A stretch of 15,755 bases of DNA from a virus (lineage: Duplodnaviria; Heunggongvirae; Uroviricota; Caudoviricetes): the IMG/VR virus record IMGVR_UViG_2545824742_000009; one strand, written 5' to 3'. Position numbers and translations under genes: made by a program. This document shows, piece by piece, positions 428 through 15,755 of the stretch (the stretch's first letter is position 1; each line of letters begins with the position of its first letter). The notes under the pieces are model-generated. The model saw nothing but the letters and a program-made list of their open reading frames with translations, searched no databases and had not been told where the DNA came from.

Positions 428-853
428 TTAAAACTCTGCTTTCATTTTATCCGGGAATTTTTTATTTGCAGCATAATAACTACCAAGTACATAAGCGTTC
501 ATTTGCTGCTCTACATCAACCCGACATGCCGCACTAGAACAAGCTCCACTGATAAGCCCAAAAGAACTCCCTTTAGCAGAGAGATCAGCTTTGATTTCCT
601 CTACAGTGTTTTTCCCCATAGCAACTACACACCCTGTCACAATATATCTAGCCTTCACATCATCCATGCTAAGGATAGTAGTTTTCGCAATTTTGCTGTA
701 TCCATCATTTTTATAAACATCCATGGCAAACGCACGGCAATCTGTATAATACGGACTTGCTTTAACTTGCGAATACTCAGGTAATTTCATACCTGCACAA
801 CCAACTAAACAAAAACCTATCGCTGCTATTAATACCTTTTTCATTACAGTCAT
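428..853 (-). CDS. Putative secreted lipoprotein (moron)
   Basis: N-terminus M(TVM)KKVLIAAIGFCLVGCAG has basic residues, a hydrophobic core and lipobox L-V-G-C. Visibly AT-rich compared with neighbours and flanked by terminators. Start could be ATG 853 or ATG 844. Confidence 0.7.
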   Translation of the reverse strand: MTVMKKVLIAAIGFCLVGCAGMKLPEYSQVKASPYYTDCRAFAMDVYKNDGYSKIAKTTILSMDDVKARYIVTGCVVAMGKNTVEEIKADLSAKGSSFGLISGACSSAACRVDVEQQMNAYVLGSYYAANKKFPDKMKAEF

Positions 854-1133: not shown

Positions 1134-1886
1134 TTATCTTGTCACATTTCTCAATTGTATCTCTGCATATGCTTCTTCCTGCCAGCACTTTGTAACCAGT
1201 TTATCAATGACATCTGCATATCCTTTGTACCACTGATAATCCGTCAGGTCTGGTACCAGCTTCTGGACATGATGCCGCGCCAGTGTGGTTGGTAAACGGC
1301 TAAACCGGTTTCCATTGCAACGCCCACAAATCTTATAAACAGGCGTGCCATGAAGCCGGGTCCTTTTTTCATCCAGGACAATACCTTTACCCTTACACCC
1401 TCTGCACGCTGTGCTGACTTCTCCCTTACCATGACAATGCTGACATAGTTCCTTCACCCACTCTTCCTTGATAACAGATTCCCCGCTTCTGGAGTGTTTC
1501 ACCACTTCGCGCAATACATTATGAAATCCAGTACCAGCACAATGCTCACAGCGAGCCTTACTTGCCGCAGACCTGGAATAATCAGCAAAGGCAAAATTCA
1601 CAAGGTAAGGGATGATCTGTAACCGGGTTTCTTCACTCAATTTGTTCAATGTCGGGTTATCCAGTGCCATCGCGTAATTGAGCAGACCTTCAATCGCAAA
1701 TTGAGGATCCTGAACACCAACTTTTGCCAGGAATAAGGCAAACCCAAGCGGTGCTTTCGACTGCACCATCCCCTGCGCAGCCATCACATCTGTAATTGTT
1801 AAACCACCCGAGCCTGTCGCCGGTGCGTCATCACTCAATTTTGGAGATTTTGGGGAGTAATATTTTGGTAAGGCTTCAAGGTTCAT
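1134..1886 (-). CDS. Q-like late-gene antitermination protein with DnaJ-type zinc-finger repeats
   Basis: 250 aa with four CxxCxGxG repeats (CEHCAGTG, CQHCHGKG, CRGCKGKG, CGRCNGN). Sits downstream of a DUF968 gene and upstream of a promoter/terminator unit, as for QuuQ-type Q proteins. Family assignment is from memory. Confidence 0.6.
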   Translation of the reverse strand: MNLEALPKYYSPKSPKLSDDAPATGSGGLTITDVMAAQGMVQSKAPLGFALFLAKVGVQDPQFAIEGLLNYAMALDNPTLNKLSEETRLQIIPYLVNFAFADYSRSAASKARCEHCAGTGFHNVLREVVKHSRSGESVIKEEWVKELCQHCHGKGEVSTACRGCKGKGIVLDEKRTRLHGTPVYKICGRCNGNRFSRLPTTLARHHVQKLVPDLTDYQWYKGYADVIDKLVTKCWQEEAYAEIQLRNVTR

Positions 1887-6630: not shown

Positions 6631-7459
6631 GACGATGCCCTCCGCTGATATTCAGGAGACGGTGAATATGAAAATTAGCCTTATCCGCCAGACGAATACG
6701 TTCAGCTTGCAAGTTAAGAAGGGTTTCTACCAGAACCTGATGTGCCTGCGGATCCGAAAGAGTTACCTTGCGCAGAGCACGTAGTGCAGTTGTTACATAA
6801 CTGAGTTTATGTAAGTCTTCATCATTCAGACGAGTGAGGGCTGGGACAGTAGCCATGATGGCAGCCTCCTTGATCGGTGAAATACTTCCACCACCGGAAA
6901 CGCCAATTTCGCTGGTGGTGAACTGAACGGGGTTGGCGTAACCGGTGATCAAGGAAACCGGCGCATCTTTCGATGCCCCCGCCCAGCCCACCATAACTTT
7001 GATGTGAGCAAATGCGGACGATAAAAAAGACGCTGGCGCGTCATATATCGCCTTGATCAATTCCAGGACGCCAATCCCGGCACCCGCTTTATAAGGTGCC
7101 TGAACAGTGTAACGTCCCGGAATGGCAGAATCAATGTGCTGGTGGTCCTTCACACTCAACAAAATCACGCTTGAATTTCCACAAAGGACTAAAGCACTCA
7201 TGCGGGTAGTCTTTGCGAAGATAGATAACGCGCTGTGTTTCTGGCTCCCAACGAATAACATGAACATAAAGTCCTCTTCCGTCACGAAACCAGCGGTTAA
7301 GTTCCTGCACAACTCGCCCCCCACAGTCAGGTAAAGTTCTCTGTGGTTACTTACAGCCAGGAGATTTGGTAATCTGCATTCATGCCGTAACAACAGGTGT
7401 TCAGCGACGCTGACCACCAGCTGTTGCGACAAACGGTTATTTGCCGTTAAACTGTTCAT
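6623..7459 (-). CDS. Hypothetical phage early protein (278 aa), possibly YdaU-like
   Basis: Long ORF in the early-right operon whose start overlaps the upstream stop. No Walker A or other motif recognised. The YdaU analogy rests on size and position only. Confidence 0.5.
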   Translation of the reverse strand: MNSLTANNRLSQQLVVSVAEHLLLRHECRLPNLLAVSNHRELYLTVGGELCRNLTAGFVTEEDFMFMLFVGSQKHSALSIFAKTTRMSALVLCGNSSVILLSVKDHQHIDSAIPGRYTVQAPYKAGAGIGVLELIKAIYDAPASFLSSAFAHIKVMVGWAGASKDAPVSLITGYANPVQFTTSEIGVSGGGSISPIKEAAIMATVPALTRLNDEDLHKLSYVTTALRALRKVTLSDPQAHQVLVETLLNLQAERIRLADKANFHIHRLLNISGGHRHA

Positions 7460-8019
7460 GCGTTAGTTTCTCCACAGACACAAAACGCCACGACGCCCGG
7501 AGCTGCACACTCGCGGGCGTCACTCTTTTCTGGAGCGCAAAAGATTTTGTAGACCAGTGCTGCATGCTCCTGGAGCTTCGAAATTGACAGATACAACTCA
7601 TCATTAATTGCTGTCTGCTCGTGTGGCTCCACTACCCCATCTTCGATTGCCGAACGAATCTGCTTTGAGTAACTCCCGATCTGTTCGATGACTTCCAGCA
7701 GGCGCTGGTTTATATCGGCGTTCTCTACTTCCTCAATTTCAGGAAGCGATACAAACACCCCACCAGCAGACTGTGCGACAGCATCCGCAATGTAGTGAGT
7801 GCCAGCCGCGCGCTGTAAAATCATTGCCCATCCCAGCGGGAAAATCTGATCGCCATCTGCACGAAGGCGGTTGAATAAAGCGTTCTCTGTTACATCTAGC
7901 CACTCAGCAGCTTCAGCGTACCCCCCCGGCAACGCCGCGATAGTTTTTCTGACAGCTTTCACGTACCACTCAGGCTGTTTTTCTACTTTCCAGTGATGCT
8001 TACCCACGGTTAGCCTCAT
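7456..8019 (-). CDS. YdaT-like / CII-position regulatory protein
   Basis: 187 aa, immediately downstream of the Cro-like gene, the usual place for CII or YdaT-family proteins. Family call is by context and weak sequence recollection. Confidence 0.45.
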   Translation of the reverse strand: MRLTVGKHHWKVEKQPEWYVKAVRKTIAALPGGYAEAAEWLDVTENALFNRLRADGDQIFPLGWAMILQRAAGTHYIADAVAQSAGGVFVSLPEIEEVENADINQRLLEVIEQIGSYSKQIRSAIEDGVVEPHEQTAINDELYLSISKLQEHAALVYKIFCAPEKSDARECAAPGVVAFCVCGETNA

Positions 8020-8341: not shown

Positions 8342-9016
8342 ATGAAAACAGTCCATGACATCCGGCGGTCTAACGCCAGAAAACTGAGAGATGGTGTTGG
8401 CGGGAATTCTTCCTTTGCCACCATGATTGATCGCGAGCCAACCCAGACCAGCAGGTTTATGGGAGATGGTGCTACTAAAAATATCGGTGACAGCATGGCA
8501 AGGCACATCGAAAAATGTTTCGACCTGCCTGTCGGATGGCTTGATCAAGAACACCAGACCACGAACATCACAAAAAAACCTGATGTTTCAATCACTAACA
8601 AACAAATAACGTTAGTCCCTGTCATATCATGGGTACAGGCCGGAGCATGGAAAGAAGTTGGCTATTCTGAGGTTGATTTGAGCACAGCAGAAACTTATCC
8701 CTGCCCTGTACCCTGTGGCGAAATGACTTATATCTTGCGGGTGATTGGTGATTCAATGATTGATGAGTACCGCCCGGGAGACATGATTTTTGTTGATCCT
8801 GAAGTCCCTGCCTGCCACGGTGACGACGTTATTGCATTGATGCACGATTCAGGCGAAACCACCTTCAAGCGGTTGATAGAAGATGGAACACAGCGTTATC
8901 TCAAAGCATTAAACCCAAACTGGCCTGAGCCTTACATTAAGATTAACGGTAATTGCTCTATAATTGGTACAGTGATTTTCTCGGGAAAACCAAGAAGATA
9001 CACAATAAAGGCCTAA
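8342..9016 (+). CDS. cI: CI-type prophage repressor (HTH plus S24 LexA-like peptidase domain)
   Basis: 224 aa. C-terminal domain has GDSM (Ser nucleophile) and FKRL (Lys general base), typical of S24 autocleaving repressors. Divergent from the Cro-like gene. Confidence 0.85.
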   Translation: MKTVHDIRRSNARKLRDGVGGNSSFATMIDREPTQTSRFMGDGATKNIGDSMARHIEKCFDLPVGWLDQEHQTTNITKKPDVSITNKQITLVPVISWVQAGAWKEVGYSEVDLSTAETYPCPVPCGEMTYILRVIGDSMIDEYRPGDMIFVDPEVPACHGDDVIALMHDSGETTFKRLIEDGTQRYLKALNPNWPEPYIKINGNCSIIGTVIFSGKPRRYTIKA

Positions 9017-9028
9017 TCAATATTTATG

Positions 9029-9052
9029 AACCTGCTTCGGCAGGTTTTTTTA
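9029..9052 (+). terminator. Rho-independent terminator after cI
   Basis: AACCTGC-TTCG-GCAGGTT hairpin followed by TTTTTTTAT, beginning 13 nt after the cI stop. Confidence 0.7.
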
Positions 9053-9055
9053 TAC

Positions 9056-9088
9056 TTGACAATGTACCTATGAGATACATAATGTATC
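9056..9088 (+). promoter_or_regulatory. pL-like early promoter with overlapping operator
   Basis: TTGACA (9056-9061), 16-nt spacer, CATAAT (9078-9083). Operator ATGTACCTATGAGATACAT (9062-9080) shares arms with the 8257-8275 site. Perfect palindrome GATACATAATGTATC (9074-9088) overlaps the -10. Confidence 0.55.
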
Positions 9089-9521
9089 CAAAAGAAACAT
9101 GAGGCAGGCAAGATTCAAACAAAATTTGGTTGTAACACGGCGTATGGCACATGCGTCGTTAGCGGTCTGGGGACGTTAAAGGGGATAATCCACTCCTTGC
9201 TCGGGCAAACAAACCAGGTAGCCGGAATGTGCAAGTCAATGATGATGCTGATAAGACGCCTAACCAGCGTGGCGATTCGGTTTGACGCCTGGGAAGAGAC
9301 CAGGGTGCAACGATGAGGGCATTTATGGAACCGCGACAAAGTGTGGTGCCGTAACTGGCTAAGTGCTCTCAGCGTTGTGGTGAATGCGCAGGCTGATGCG
9401 CGAAAGACATTGCAGATATTGCGGAAAAGAGCTGTTCGGCGGGGCAATTAAATGCCCGTGAGAGTCTGAAATAACCGCAAGCCGGAGATCAGCACCGGTC
9501 ACCACAACAGCCACTGCTTTG

Positions 9522-9568
9522 GCGGTACCAGTTTGTACACTTGCTTCCGGCTGGTACCGCTCTTTTTA
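9522..9568 (+). terminator. Terminator-like stem-loop in the early-left leader
   Basis: 10-bp stem GCGGTACCAG / CTGGTACCGC with 19-nt loop, followed by TCTTTTTA. About 140 nt upstream of the yfdP-like start. Confidence 0.35.
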
Positions 9569-9704
9569 CAAAACAGAGAAGAGCATCACCGGACGACGGG
9601 CTCATAACCCAATCCATCCGGGCAGCAGCCACTGCAGGTGTTCTTCTCTGTTTTGTGGAGAAACTAACCGACCTTGCAGGGTCGATATGATGAGGAGCAG
9701 CAAA

Positions 9705-12924: not shown

Positions 12925-13232
12925 GCAATTATCTGTACTGGTCTGGCTTAGTGGCTAACATCGCTCTCATGTTGTTCGTGGCTCTTTGCATCTGGGTTTG
13001 GTTTATCTGGCCTTTTGTAGAGGCCATGAGCATAACTCGGTGCTTTATTTGCGCATCAAAGACTTCTGGATGCAAACCAACTGTAAAAGCAATTATCAGA
13101 ACTTTAAAATACTGGTATCTGGATTTGCTTTTCGGCAGGGGCTGGACGCGAATTAGTAACCGCCAGTTTGAATGGGAAGGCGTCGGTAACTGGCGAATTC
13201 ACAGCAGCAAAGAAACGCAGGAGGTGAATTAA
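12921..13232 (+). CDS. Small membrane protein (103 aa) with one predicted TM helix and a Cys-rich segment
   Basis: GTG start with a strong AAAGGAGG SD. Hydrophobic segment LVANIALMLFVALCIWVWFIWPF, then CFICASKTSGCKPT. Stop overlaps the xis start (TAATG). Confidence 0.55.
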   Translation: MSNYLYWSGLVANIALMLFVALCIWVWFIWPFVEAMSITRCFICASKTSGCKPTVKAIIRTLKYWYLDLLFGRGWTRISNRQFEWEGVGNWRIHSSKETQEVN

Positions 13233-13426
13233 TGAACAACTTAATGACAACAAAACAAGTCGCCGAATTCTGTGGCGTTTCAATATCGACGGTGCTTCGC
13301 TGGAACAGCGTAAACCGGAGAACTGGCAAGAAATACAGACCAGACTTTCCAGATCCTGATATTAAATCCTGCCCAAATAAATGGGCATCACAAAAGATTT
13401 ACAGGTTTGCAGGAGTCATTGAGTAA
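13232..13426 (+). CDS. xis: Excisionase / AlpA-family HTH DNA-binding protein
   Basis: 64 aa. MTTKQVAEFCGVSISTVLRW...FPDPDIKSCPNKWASQKIYRF fits small MerR-like Xis/AlpA proteins. AGGAGGTGA SD. Convergent with the integrase. Confidence 0.7.
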   Translation: MNNLMTTKQVAEFCGVSISTVLRWNSVNRRTGKKYRPDFPDPDIKSCPNKWASQKIYRFAGVIE

Positions 13427-13463
13427 TATGCCTTAGATCAGATGTAAGCTGACACACCACTAT

Positions 13464-13503
13464 GGCACAGAGTCAAACCTAATCTAACTACCTGCTCTGT
13501 GCC
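13464..13503. other. Stem-loop between convergent xis and the orphan gene
   Basis: 9-bp arms GGCACAGAG (13464-13472) and CTCTGTGCC (13495-13503) with a 22-nt loop. No flanking U-run on either strand. Confidence 0.3.
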
Positions 13504-13561
13504 AAAAGAAGATACTACTAACATAATTATAAAATAATCAACGGGAAATAGCTCATCTGTA

Positions 13562-14377
13562 CTACTCCACAAGCGGGATAAGTTTTTTACCTGTGTCTTC
13601 AAAGAATGAAAACGAAGACCAGCGGTAAGTATATAAAAAAGCCACCTTGCCTGCATGTTCTTCGATAGCTTTTTTTAAATATGACTTGCGTTTACTGACT
13701 TTTGGAAATTTATCCGAAAAGATAACTATTGCTCTTGATGATAGTCCACCACCATTTCGCATAAAGAGAGTAAACTCACTCAATCTAAGCATATTGAAAT
13801 TTGCACAATTCGCTACATCATTATCAAACTTAGCAACTATACTTTTTATTTTGTCATACAGACTGACCATATCCCTAAAAATATTTTCATCTGCCAACTG
13901 AATATTTCTTTCATTCAACTCTGTTATATACTTATTATCATCCACTATTCCAATAGGGTATCGAGCATTTAAAACTATATCTCGAGACGCAACCTTCAAT
14001 AACTTCAGCTCGTCAACGGTTAATGGCAAACCTAAATCAACAGCCATACAATCAAGTTTATGCCCATAATTACAAAACTCATTTTCAATAGCTTTTTTTC
14101 TCGCACCGAGATTCATTAGAAGAATCGCTGACTTTAACAACATTTCAAAAGCATACCCCAACATAAGTCTGCTAGTTTTATCAGTTGCCGATGCGATATC
14201 GATGTATTCATGAACAATAGGAGATTTCTTACTTGCTGTCCGAAGCAATTTTTTGTTTCGCTCACCTTCACTTCTCAACAGCTTCGCAGATAAATACAGT
14301 TGTTTAGACTCTGTTAACCAAGCCTTTCGATCAAATATACCTTTCCCATTTTTCTGCGTGATTATCTCGCTCTGCAT
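13562..14377 (-). CDS. AT-rich orphan protein (271 aa) in the integrase-excisionase cargo slot; function unknown
   Basis: Start ATG at 14375-14377 with AGGAG 7 nt upstream; the track begins 3 nt earlier at TTG. Visibly much more AT-rich than flanking phage genes. Soluble, largely helical-looking, no TM segment and no catalytic motif I can assign. Confidence 0.7.
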   Translation of the reverse strand: MQSEIITQKNGKGIFDRKAWLTESKQLYLSAKLLRSEGERNKKLLRTASKKSPIVHEYIDIASATDKTSRLMLGYAFEMLLKSAILLMNLGARKKAIENEFCNYGHKLDCMAVDLGLPLTVDELKLLKVASRDIVLNARYPIGIVDDNKYITELNERNIQLADENIFRDMVSLYDKIKSIVAKFDNDVANCANFNMLRLSEFTLFMRNGGGLSSRAIVIFSDKFPKVSKRKSYLKKAIEEHAGKVAFLYTYRWSSFSFFEDTGKKLIPLVE

Positions 14378-14531
14378 CAATAACTCCTATGTTATTAGAA
14401 TCAAACCTGCCACTAATCAATTGCAAATCTCGTCGCTGTTATTTTGACCAGACATTACATTGCTCCATTTGTAAAATACCACTTAACTAACTTGAATGAG
14501 AAATTGTAAGTATTCCGACAAAAAAAGACTA

Positions 14532-15755
14532 TCAGTTGAGGTCTAAGCTAGCACAAGTAACGATCGATTCAACCCTATCCCACCACGCCTGGTAGGCTTT
14601 ACGCTGTTCTTCTAGATAATCGCTCTTGTCATAAACCTGCCAAACCCCTGGCAGTTTATGGCCGAGCATTATTTCTGCAATATGAGGAGCAGTAAGATCA
14701 GAAAAATTTGTTCGTGCTGTTCGCCTCAAATCATGAAGAGACCAATGAGGGAATTGATACCCCAAACGCCGCCATGCGTACTGCATTAAATTGTAAGGCA
14801 GCGACTGCAATGATGTTCGACCAACGGGTTCCCTGCTTCCTTCCTTAGTAAAAAGCATATCGGAACCATTGTTCATAGAGATAGCGTTCTTTATAAGCTC
14901 TTCCACCGGTTCAATAATGGGCCGCTTTAGCGGTTCGCCCGTTATCTCCCCAGTCTTATGTCGTTCAGGTGGTACAGTCCATACCTTATTAATGAAATCA
15001 AAATCGTCCACCCTAGCAGTAATTAGCTCTGAACTACGACAGCCAAAATGCAGCAATAGCTTAATGAAGGCCCGGTATTTAGGAACCATTCGAGAACCAT
15101 CGATCGCAGCATAAAGGATTTTAATTTCATCATGTGTCAGAAACCGTTTCTTCTGACCTTTACGGATATCCATATCTTTACCCGTGATATCCGACAGCGG
15201 GCGAGTTTCAATGAGCTTTCTCTTATACGCCCAGACATGGGCCTGCTTTGCGTTAATTAGCAATCGGTCTGCTATTGCTGGAGTCTTAGTGCTAAGAGGC
15301 TCCAGGACTTCTAACCAATCATGCAATGTAGCTGCATCGTGAGGGATATTCCCGATTTTAGAAAACAGGTGCAGCTCAAACGAGCGGAGTATCTGTTCAG
15401 AACCTTTTTTATTTTTTACACAATATGCTTCATACCAGGCACGGATCACAGACTCTACCGTCATGGCCTCAGTAGCTTTTCGTTTTTCAGCCTGCTTGAC
15501 CAATCGTGGATTACGGTTTGACTCAAGTTCACCACGGAGACGGATAACTTCTTCTCTGGCCTCTTTTAATCCAGTTGCCGGGTAAGTTCCGATATCAAGA
15601 CGCTCACCTTTCCCTGCCCATTGATAACGATATTGGAACACTACGCGACCTTTCGGTGATACTCTGACAGACAGACCATCACGATCGGATTTAACCAAAA
15701 CCTTATCACGTTCCTTTCCAACGACTGAACGCAACCACGCATCAGACAGCGCCAT
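14532..15755 (-). CDS. int: Phage tyrosine integrase (N-terminal DUF4102-type arm-binding domain plus catalytic domain)
   Basis: 407 aa. HxxR box (WSLHDLRRTART) and a C-terminal Tyr region (VWQVYDKSDY). N-terminus DGLSVRVSPKGRVVFQYRYQWAGKGERLDIGTYP is typical of P4-family integrases. Start codon is the last three bases of the window. Confidence 0.9.
   Translation of the reverse strand: MALSDAWLRSVVGKERDKVLVKSDRDGLSVRVSPKGRVVFQYRYQWAGKGERLDIGTYPATGLKEAREEVIRLRGELESNRNPRLVKQAEKRKATEAMTVESVIRAWYEAYCVKNKKGSEQILRSFELHLFSKIGNIPHDAATLHDWLEVLEPLSTKTPAIADRLLINAKQAHVWAYKRKLIETRPLSDITGKDMDIRKGQKKRFLTHDEIKILYAAIDGSRMVPKYRAFIKLLLHFGCRSSELITARVDDFDFINKVWTVPPERHKTGEITGEPLKRPIIEPVEELIKNAISMNNGSDMLFTKEGSREPVGRTSLQSLPYNLMQYAWRRLGYQFPHWSLHDLRRTARTNFSDLTAPHIAEIMLGHKLPGVWQVYDKSDYLEEQRKAYQAWWDRVESIVTCASLDLN

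Follow-up and report, generated by a model that had tools for sequence, protein, structure and literature searches.

An exchangeable one-gene cassette between int and xis of a yjjG-site lambdoid prophage encodes a candidate abortive-infection protein with a predicted HEPN fold

HepS, a solo HEPN abortive-infection protein encoded in an accessory slot of the lambdoid Salmonella prophage Gifsy-1, stays latent until it is triggered by a phage protein, and then acts as a tRNA anticodon nuclease (PMC13043305). Besides the Rx4-6H motif, which is canonical in HepS (R100-x4-H105), Ex3[KR] was recognized as a common second HEPN motif by Anantharaman et al. 2013 (PMC3710099). These authors also reported that AbiV and the HEPN-T proteins of the AF0298/2hsb type lose the motif His while keeping a basic residue (Arg), that a strongly conserved His upstream is a possible alternative active site in these proteins, and that inactive HEPNs are expected to be devoid of conserved polar residues. 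AbiV, a lactococcal abortive-infection HEPN RNase of ~200 aa (PDB 9bj5), is reported to require an RNA antitoxin and to degrade rRNA as an active RNase (PMC13064643). Finally, AF0298 (2hsb), TT1696 (1ufb), ST0689 (1wol), and TM0613 (1o3u) represent the small 'classical' HEPN proteins (PF05168), which have a single domain of ~120-135 aa and are usually paired with a minimal nucleotidyltransferase.

In terms of genomic setting, the hotspots of P2/P4 elements described by Rousset et al. 2022 (PMC9122126) combine conserved flanks with interchangeable AT-rich cargo, in which known systems are found together with unknown genes. The locus described here is alike in these respects, and a link between the two is provided by a Klebsiella homologue of its gene, found in the interval from int to the AlpA/primase genes of a P4-like satellite; it differs by its carrier, a lambdoid prophage at yjjG, and by the position of the slot, which is bordered by the int stop codon and xis. 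This yjjG-site slot is not mentioned in a survey of E. coli defence islands (PMC10121019). While solo HEPN defence genes of prophage hotspots are already a known kind of system, the family of the 271-aa protein encoded here, its motif set combined with a new C-terminal domain, and the slot itself are in no library or paper searched. Judging from its context and predicted fold, the best overall reading of this protein, to which we give a probability of about 0.5, is that of a candidate single-protein abortive-infection RNase.

The window, i.e., the whole stretch of 15,755 nt that was analysed, is 100% identical to a region of the chromosome of E. coli ETEC-2265 (NZ_CP023346.1), and represents the left arm of a lambdoid prophage whose insertion site adjoins yjjG. 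The features follow each other in the order yjjG, att remnant, int, 271-aa gene, xis, early-left operon (a PAPS-reductase-like gene, yfdR, yfdQ, and yfdP), repressor, and replication, Q, and lysis genes. The slot and its surroundings comprise the following features:

13232-13426, plus strand: excisionase forming the conserved left flank, in convergent orientation to the cargo gene (phrog_1553, E 6e-35)
13463..13504, no strand: perfect 10-bp inverted repeat with a 22-nt loop, at the conserved left edge of the slot
13513..14527, no strand: exchangeable cargo cassette that fills the int-xis slot (1015 bp; GC 0.348; borders from blastn)
13562..14377, minus strand: cargo CDS, 271 aa plus stop (RefSeq WP_016570101.1, 'hypothetical protein')
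14388-14384, minus strand: Shine-Dalgarno sequence AGGAG, 6 nt 5' of the ATG at 14377
14532-15755, minus strand: tyrosine integrase forming the conserved right flank (phrog_1, E 9e-76)

An earlier note on this DNA had described a well-supported CDS of 271 aa with an AGGAG Shine-Dalgarno sequence, and this description is borne out by the 100% identity between the product of 13562-14377 and WP_016570101.1, by the existence of ~185 family clusters, and by dN/dS values of 0.17-0.28. Its flanks had likewise been correctly read as an integrase and a convergent excisionase, as seen from the phrog_1 and phrog_1553 matches. The position of the gene on the minus strand between int and xis also stands, but it is not 'alone' on that strand, since it lies downstream of int and is oriented in the same direction. 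The start codon of the integrase coincides with the end of the window (15755).

Few regulatory signals are recognizable around the gene. No match to the sigma-70 consensus was found on its strand in the cassette and the 154-bp upstream spacer, the sole minus-strand match of a scan from 13200 to 14800 being inside int (14643-14616), and no terminator was detected over the same interval; a promoter and terminator scan of the homologous Klebsiella region returned nothing either. The inverted repeat at 13463..13504 is kept in part among sister prophages and has no U-tail on either strand, and the 3' UTR of the cargo gene does not fold better than shuffled sequence (z = -0.64). In addition, the cassette gives no Rfam match and contains no tandem repeat array, only short two-copy repeats attributable to chance. 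Neither a repeat-encoded nor an adjacent RNA antitoxin (type III, in the style of ToxIN, AbiF, or AbiV) was found at the cargo gene by these searches, although an RNA of non-repetitive kind may be present, nor is there an adjacent gene for a minimal nucleotidyltransferase (MNT) or any other antitoxin, its neighbours being int and xis.

The borders of the cassette were set by blastn comparison with eight sister prophages inserted at the same chromosomal site, in which the conserved flank on the xis side stops at window positions 13476-13513 and the conserved flank on the int side starts at 14528-14550. The GC content of 0.348 between 13513 and 14527 is to be compared with a mean of 0.490 (sd 0.041) for non-overlapping windows of the same length elsewhere, which corresponds to z = -3.5. 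In a sliding window, the GC content is 0.33-0.37 across the gene vs ~0.45-0.55 elsewhere, and the 1015-bp window with the lowest GC content of the whole 15.7 kb begins at 13512, thereby coinciding with the border found independently from the sister prophages. The lower G+C content relative to the backbone on both sides, first noticed by eye, is thus real, and the view of the gene as separately acquired cargo agrees with the sharp borders and with the presence of the cassette in only some of the E. coli genomes that share its flanks.

Indeed, these flanks are common to ~726 of 5426 complete E. coli genomes, 19 of which carry the 271-aa gene, always as a single copy; the 19 isolates come from human, dog, cattle, chicken, pig, and dolphin hosts. 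Sister prophages at yjjG hold other cargos in the same slot, as listed below, where occupancy is the number of genomes with at least 80% of the respective cassette:

271-aa gene (window): 19 genomes
Pair of genes for 160 and 150 aa (L003): 28 genomes
Gene for 239 aa (L004): 70 genomes
Gene for 331 aa, membrane-like (L005): 54 genomes
Gene for 377 aa (L006, L019): 61 genomes
Gene for 413 aa (L018): 75 genomes
Gene for a dGTPase-family protein (L020): 42 genomes
Gene for Dsr1 (L021): 72 genomes

All eight cassettes share their borders and are mutually unrelated, and with the exception of the Dsr1 cassette they have a GC content of 0.32-0.37. Two cargos are known systems, namely Dsr1 (PADLOC E = 0) and an anti-phage dGTPase (PADLOC E 3.5e-105), while the five others besides the 271-aa gene are of no known kind, with no PADLOC or Pfam match. 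Since Dsr1, the dGTPase, or unrelated cargos occupy this position in sister prophages, the int-xis slot is a real defence hotspot, as the earlier note had proposed for integrase-proximal slots in general. It is near certain that we are dealing with a one-gene cassette of a yjjG-site lambdoid prophage, subject to horizontal exchange, both as regards the nature of the gene as cargo and the status of the slot as a hotspot. A role of the 271-aa protein in integration or excision was also considered and rejected, the slot content being interchangeable with Dsr1 and dGTPase. Over 700 complete E. coli genomes have sharp borders at this slot, between which two known systems alternate with at least six unknown cargos, and each of the latter is therefore a ready candidate for cloning.

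The protein itself could not be assigned to any described family. As had been anticipated from inspection by eye, HMM searches with the 271-aa query gave no significant match in Pfam, NCBIfam, or PHROGs, and its best matches in PADLOC-DB v2 (E 0.0015 and 0.0072) cover short stretches and are not significant. In a set of 55 diverse members (21-41% identity, with one closer member at 74%), no PADLOC family was matched by more than one member, the AbiV model is not among the PADLOC matches, and no consistent Pfam family emerged. PDB sequences searched with two family profiles (A1 and A2) gave zero matches at E <= 10, tblastn found no match in sequenced phages or in plasmids, the IMG/VR search returned the same prophage lineage only, and a scan of genome contigs retrieved three loci only. 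In contrast to these annotated collections, protein clusters reveal a family that is rare and made of about 185 clusters. While a word-indexed search retrieved 31 clusters from Enterobacterales with a conserved length of 269-272 aa, an exhaustive profile search yielded 185 representatives, with E <= 0.001 for all and E <= 1e-10 for 114, most being 260-295 aa long. Named members come from Alpha-, Beta-, and Gammaproteobacteria, Nitrospirales, and Phycisphaeraceae, and are all annotated as 'hypothetical'. The dN/dS range given above was obtained among E. coli, Klebsiella, and Pantoea orthologues and indicates purifying selection, and the gene has a GC content of 0.30-0.38 in every host examined. 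No paper citing accessions of the family was found, and these accessions are absent from those supplementary files of DefensePredictor that could be covered.

An AlphaFold2 model computed with the family alignment (pLDDT 86, pTM 0.84) shows a long helical domain (residues ~17-185) followed by an alpha/beta domain (residues ~190-271):

13823..14329, minus strand: predicted N-terminal HEPN-fold domain, residues ~17-185, with E78x3K82, invariant H106, and R139-Y140-P141
13565..13810, minus strand: predicted C-terminal alpha/beta domain, residues ~190-271, with conserved R207-x-G209-G210, R215, and W253

In the model, the first of these domains has the four-helix, up-and-down core of the HEPN superfamily, which is all-alpha and in which helices 2 and 3 are separated by an insert, and its structure matches, with their scores, point in the same direction:

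1wol, ST0689: 10.5
4nqf, HEPN domain protein: 10.4
1ufb, TT1696: 10.3
7ae2, 8xdj, and 5yep, HEPN toxins of MNT-HEPN modules: 9.5-9.9
2hsb, AF0298: 9.9
3o10, sacsin HEPN: 9.8
8jbc, Csm6: 8.3

Overall, 11 of 14 structure matches are HEPN by description or by what is known of them, 1ufb (TT1696) has motifs in common with the HEPN matches, and two others (2jpu and 3mfn) carry no fold name. On the basis of the model, we consider it quite probable that the N-terminal domain has a HEPN fold. This assignment rests on fold and motif order, since sequence comparisons are not significant: hhalign of the family against an alignment of TT1696, ST0689, and TM0613 aligned only the last helix, with a probability of 0.6%, and pairwise Smith-Waterman comparisons with these HEPN proteins gave z < 1 after shuffling. 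Pfam HEPN (PF05168) does not match the query at E <= 10, and matches one of the 55 members (E 0.0028). In the pairwise Smith-Waterman alignment with TT1696, the stretch GH...RYP is in register. Foldseek found no counterpart at E <= 0.001 among the viral structures of BFVD, and the C-terminal domain has no recognizable relative, its weak fold matches being to RNA-associated modules.

The conserved residues of the family are consistent with such a fold. W20, K82, H106, Y140, and P141 are invariant in the 55 members, and E78, R139, S69, Y75, R207, G209, G210, and W253 are at least 90% conserved. The second HEPN motif, Ex3[KR], is present in helix 2 as E78-M-L-L-K82, whereas Rx4-6H is absent from the start of the last core helix, no His being found 5-7 residues past R139 in 22 close and 55 diverse members; its absence had already been noticed earlier from the sequence. 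The structure prediction and fold search nevertheless led to a HEPN fold despite the missing motif, with the residue pattern of an alternative site. H106 is located in the helix 2/3 insert, 33 residues before R139, which itself belongs to the R-Y-P found just before the last helices, and the family pattern of E78x3K82, H106, and R139-Y-P appears, in sequence terms, to match exactly the putative 'alternative site' pattern of AbiV and AF0298. RNase activity is not assured, as the canonical catalytic His is missing, but the loss of this residue does not preclude catalysis, since AbiV, which also lacks it, is reported to be an active RNase.

Compared with the described HEPN systems, the 271-aa protein shows no significant sequence or profile similarity to AF0298, TT1696, ST0689, and TM0613, from which it also differs by longer helices, the extra C-terminal domain, and the lack of a nucleotidyltransferase partner. 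It is unlike AbiV in having this extra domain and in coming from a cassette without a repeat array or RNA candidate. HepS is taken here as the working model, as it is likewise a single prophage-borne HEPN protein without a partner gene, encoded in a lambdoid accessory slot; it differs by its Rx4-6H. Judged by the criteria of the authors' homologue set rather than by sequence alignment, the present protein falls outside the HepS family, as proteins longer than 250 aa or with extra domains are left out of that set (PMC13043305) and this one has 271 aa and two domains.

As a rule, homologues reside in islands that carry an integrase, with defence genes next to them:

Klebsiella (80% identity): ssrA-located P4-like satellite, with int/Abi_alpha (PADLOC PDC-S47) on one side and AlpA/primase on the other
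K. pneumoniae: after a large integrase and a 232-aa gene with a canonical NRHAFAH motif
Distant homologue (L015): adjoins Dsr2 (E 2.5e-156)
Distant homologue (L017): directly after an integrase, adjoins a KAP NTPase (PDC-S20)
Distant homologue (L023): adjoins another KAP NTPase
Distant homologue (L022): integrase island with DUF4365, HsdR, and reverse transcriptase
Distant homologue (L024): plasmid-like contig with many IS elements
Roseovarius, distant homologue (L016): housekeeping gene surroundings

Several homologues are thus direct neighbours of an integrase or part of islands with type I restriction-modification (R-M), reverse transcriptase, or toxin-antitoxin genes. At the homologue loci examined, no partner gene is kept throughout the family and none is adjoined by a nucleotidyltransferase gene. 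The closest relatives depart from this picture in one respect: those with 78-80% identity, from Klebsiella, E. coli, and Enterobacter, are preceded on the same strand, 35-40 bp upstream, by a gene for a 302/303-aa Mrr_cat protein. This pair occurs in at least two kinds of element, the Klebsiella P4-like satellite and a resolvase/helicase element of E. coli and Enterobacter. All the more distant members examined are devoid of an Mrr_cat neighbour. In the window, a complete Mrr_cat gene is absent immediately upstream of the cargo gene, and traces of one are present:

14439..14522, minus strand: remains of an Mrr_cat gene, comprising its upstream region and first codons (75% identity to positions 6973-7068 of relative locus L011, E 1e-14)
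14417..14455, minus strand: vestigial 12-codon ORF MSGQNNSDEICN followed by a stop, which is what is left of the Mrr_cat start MAGQDKNK; GGAG at 14466-14463

The 84-bp vestige (14522-14439) covers the DNA 5' of the Mrr gene and its first 17 nt, with 6 recognizable codons. As the 5' region of the Mrr gene is retained, the window cassette corresponds to the two-gene cassette minus the nuclease gene. The upstream DNA, pictured in the earlier note as AT-rich non-coding DNA that could hold a promoter, is not an anonymous spacer but the vestigial 5' region of a deleted Mrr-type gene, and contains no sigma-70 consensus on the strand of the cargo gene; the retained Mrr 5' region nonetheless hints at where transcription may start. 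More generally, this vestige indicates that multi-gene cassettes get trimmed while moving between satellites and prophages.

According to the reading that we favour, the 271-aa protein would act on its own as an abortive-infection or defence effector, latent in the lysogen. It would respond to a component of an infecting phage, recognized plausibly by the C-terminal domain or by way of an altered oligomeric state, upon which the HEPN site would cut RNA (tRNA, rRNA, or mRNA) by means of H106, R139, and E78/K82. This site most likely spans the interface of a presumed dimer. Translation would then halt and the infection abort. For defence through RNA cleavage as such, suggested by the same context and fold, we put the chances at even at best. 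Among the observations that go against this explanation is the distant Roseovarius homologue, which lies among housekeeping genes.

The association with Mrr_cat raises another view, in which the gene would be one half of a two-gene system made of an Mrr-type nuclease and a HEPN protein, the window copy being a decaying or altered remnant. The occurrence of the pair in more than one kind of element, the retention of the upstream region and first codons of Mrr_cat in the window, and the frequent clustering of HEPN genes with R-M operons (PMC3710099) are in line with it, and the solo copy may be incomplete since the nuclease that accompanies its close relatives was lost here. Nevertheless, 19 genomes from a range of hosts carry the solo ORF in intact form, with all the family-invariant residues, most of the differences between its two alleles are synonymous (dN/dS 0.17, on few sites), and neither the distant members examined nor the family as a whole keep such a partner, so that we regard this view as unlikely. 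Decay in a broader sense, i.e., a spurious or decaying ORF in AT-rich junk DNA, might be evoked by the 'hypothetical' annotation, the lack of a database family, and the lack of a detectable promoter; with ~185 clusters of conserved length in several phyla, the low dN/dS, a confident two-domain model, and a strong Shine-Dalgarno sequence, this is effectively refuted by the conservation data.

A somewhat smaller chance than that of the Mrr pairing is left to a non-catalytic HEPN that would bind RNA or nucleotides and benefit the prophage otherwise, be it by regulation, superinfection exclusion by sequestration, or anti-defence. The missing Rx4-6H and the RNA-associated character of the weak C-terminal matches would fit, as would the existence of nucleotide- or substrate-binding versions among Pfam HEPN-type domains and the non-catalytic versions discussed for sacsin (PMC3710099). 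What speaks against it is that E, K, H, and R are strongly conserved where the alternative site would have them, as well as the expectation that inactive HEPNs should lack conserved polar residues (Anantharaman et al., PMC3710099); besides, the neighbours of the homologues are defence effectors and not anti-defence loci. Finally, the gene could be a selfish toxin, or addiction module, that stabilizes a mobile element, its antitoxin being the C-terminal domain or an unseen RNA, with no specific anti-phage role. HEPN proteins are common as toxins of toxin-antitoxin systems, AbiV and AbiF have RNA antitoxins (PMC13064643), and some homologues lie near toxin-antitoxin genes or on the plasmid-like contig. 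The absence of an adjacent MNT or other antitoxin gene, of a tandem repeat array, and of an Rfam match in the cassette makes this improbable, and the fact that the slot otherwise holds Dsr1 or dGTPase favours defence.

Returning to the abortive-infection RNase reading, a bolder version of it would have the protein found a so far undescribed family of single-protein immune effectors in which a new C-terminal sensor domain gates an alternative-site HEPN RNase, the slot being an unexploited hotspot and its five other cargos of no known kind being anti-phage as well; we hold this to be tentative, and less probable than the reading itself. If the protein does defend against phage, a defence architecture combining an alternative-site HEPN with an alpha/beta domain would have been missed entirely by current annotation tools, and this single gene of 271 aa would offer a small test case for the build and switching of a HEPN nuclease without Rx4-6H. 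As to the C-terminal motif, a 769-aa repeat protein (P0136) contains 12 matches to it, and looks like a compositional or assembly oddity.

The spacer 5' of the 271-aa gene is what remains of the 5' region of a Mrr_cat restriction-nuclease gene; six codons of that gene are still recognisable in the window, and the remnant forms a 12-codon ORF:

14417-14522, minus strand: vestigial 5' region of the Mrr_cat gene (related loci: L011, 6973-7068; L025-L028)

Since this nuclease gene is found whole and adjoining a homologue of the 271-aa gene in Klebsiella, in Enterobacter and in another E. coli element, the cassette of the window is a two-gene cassette that was trimmed to one gene. Other neighbours were detected beside further homologues:

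L007 (K. pneumoniae), 7301-7999: 232-aa gene, unassigned to any family, ending 2 nt before the homologue
L017, 7847-8884: KAP-family NTPase (PADLOC PDC-S20) directly adjoining a distant homologue
L023, 243-1586: KAP-family NTPase directly adjoining a distant homologue

The 232-aa gene contains NRHAFAH, a canonical Rx4H motif, and it and the homologue may therefore be two distinct genes of HEPN type arranged in tandem. Regarding the KAP-family NTPase, the two contigs are unrelated and its orientation differs between them; its presence beside the homologues may reflect either a defence-island coincidence or a loose association. The family profile also matches, through its C-terminal R-x-GG...R segment (E 3e-12), the metagenomic protein P0136 (769 aa), which is built from a tandemly repeated unit of about 57 aa present in 12 copies; this protein probably arose as an artefact of composition or assembly.

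An inverted repeat lies exactly where the variable slot has its conserved left border, and the cassette breakpoints of the sister prophages fall within this repeat or just past it:

13463-13472 / 13495-13504: perfect inverted repeat (arms of 10 bp, loop of 22 nt)

As no U-tail accompanies this repeat on either strand, it is not a canonical terminator, and it may instead be a recombination-boundary mark or an RNA processing site. At the other junction, several of the sister prophages share, irrespective of their cargo, a conserved element of about 40 nt (AAAGCGGACTGTCATATTTTATTGCGTTC...) just 3' of the stop codon of int (L005 ~7895-7935, L006 ~7655-7700, L018 ~6845-6890, and also L020 and L021); this element is absent from three cassette types, namely those of the window, L003 and L004.

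Within the same slot, five sister prophages carry mutually unrelated cargos, each occurring in 28-75 complete E. coli genomes:

L003, 6313-7289: 160 + 150 aa
L004, 2994-3713: 239 aa
L005, 6585-7580: 331 aa
L006, 6427-7560: 377 aa
L018, 5495-6736: 413 aa

None of them gave a match in Pfam or PADLOC. The 239-aa cargo contains RHNFAAH, a canonical HEPN-like Rx5H motif, and the 331-aa cargo looks membrane-anchored.

Elsewhere in the window, the following features were recorded:

~194-1208: another AT-rich island, with a GC of 0.371, on the downstream side of Q
428-853, minus strand: 141-aa ORF inside this island (GC3 0.29)
1134-1886, minus strand: Q antiterminator
8342-9016: repressor gene
9017-9704: ~690 bp between the repressor gene and yfdP
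13232-13426, plus strand: excisionase ORF

Downstream of Q is where late-operon morons classically sit, and the 141-aa ORF, for which Pfam returned no match, may be another cargo gene. The excisionase ORF is unannotated in the ETEC-2265 RefSeq record and is labelled "helix-turn-helix domain-containing protein" in some sister genomes. Finally, the stretch preceding yfdP, in which RefSeq annotates no gene, has a relatively high GC content (~0.52) with positive GC and AT skews, and presumably holds the early-left promoter/operator region.
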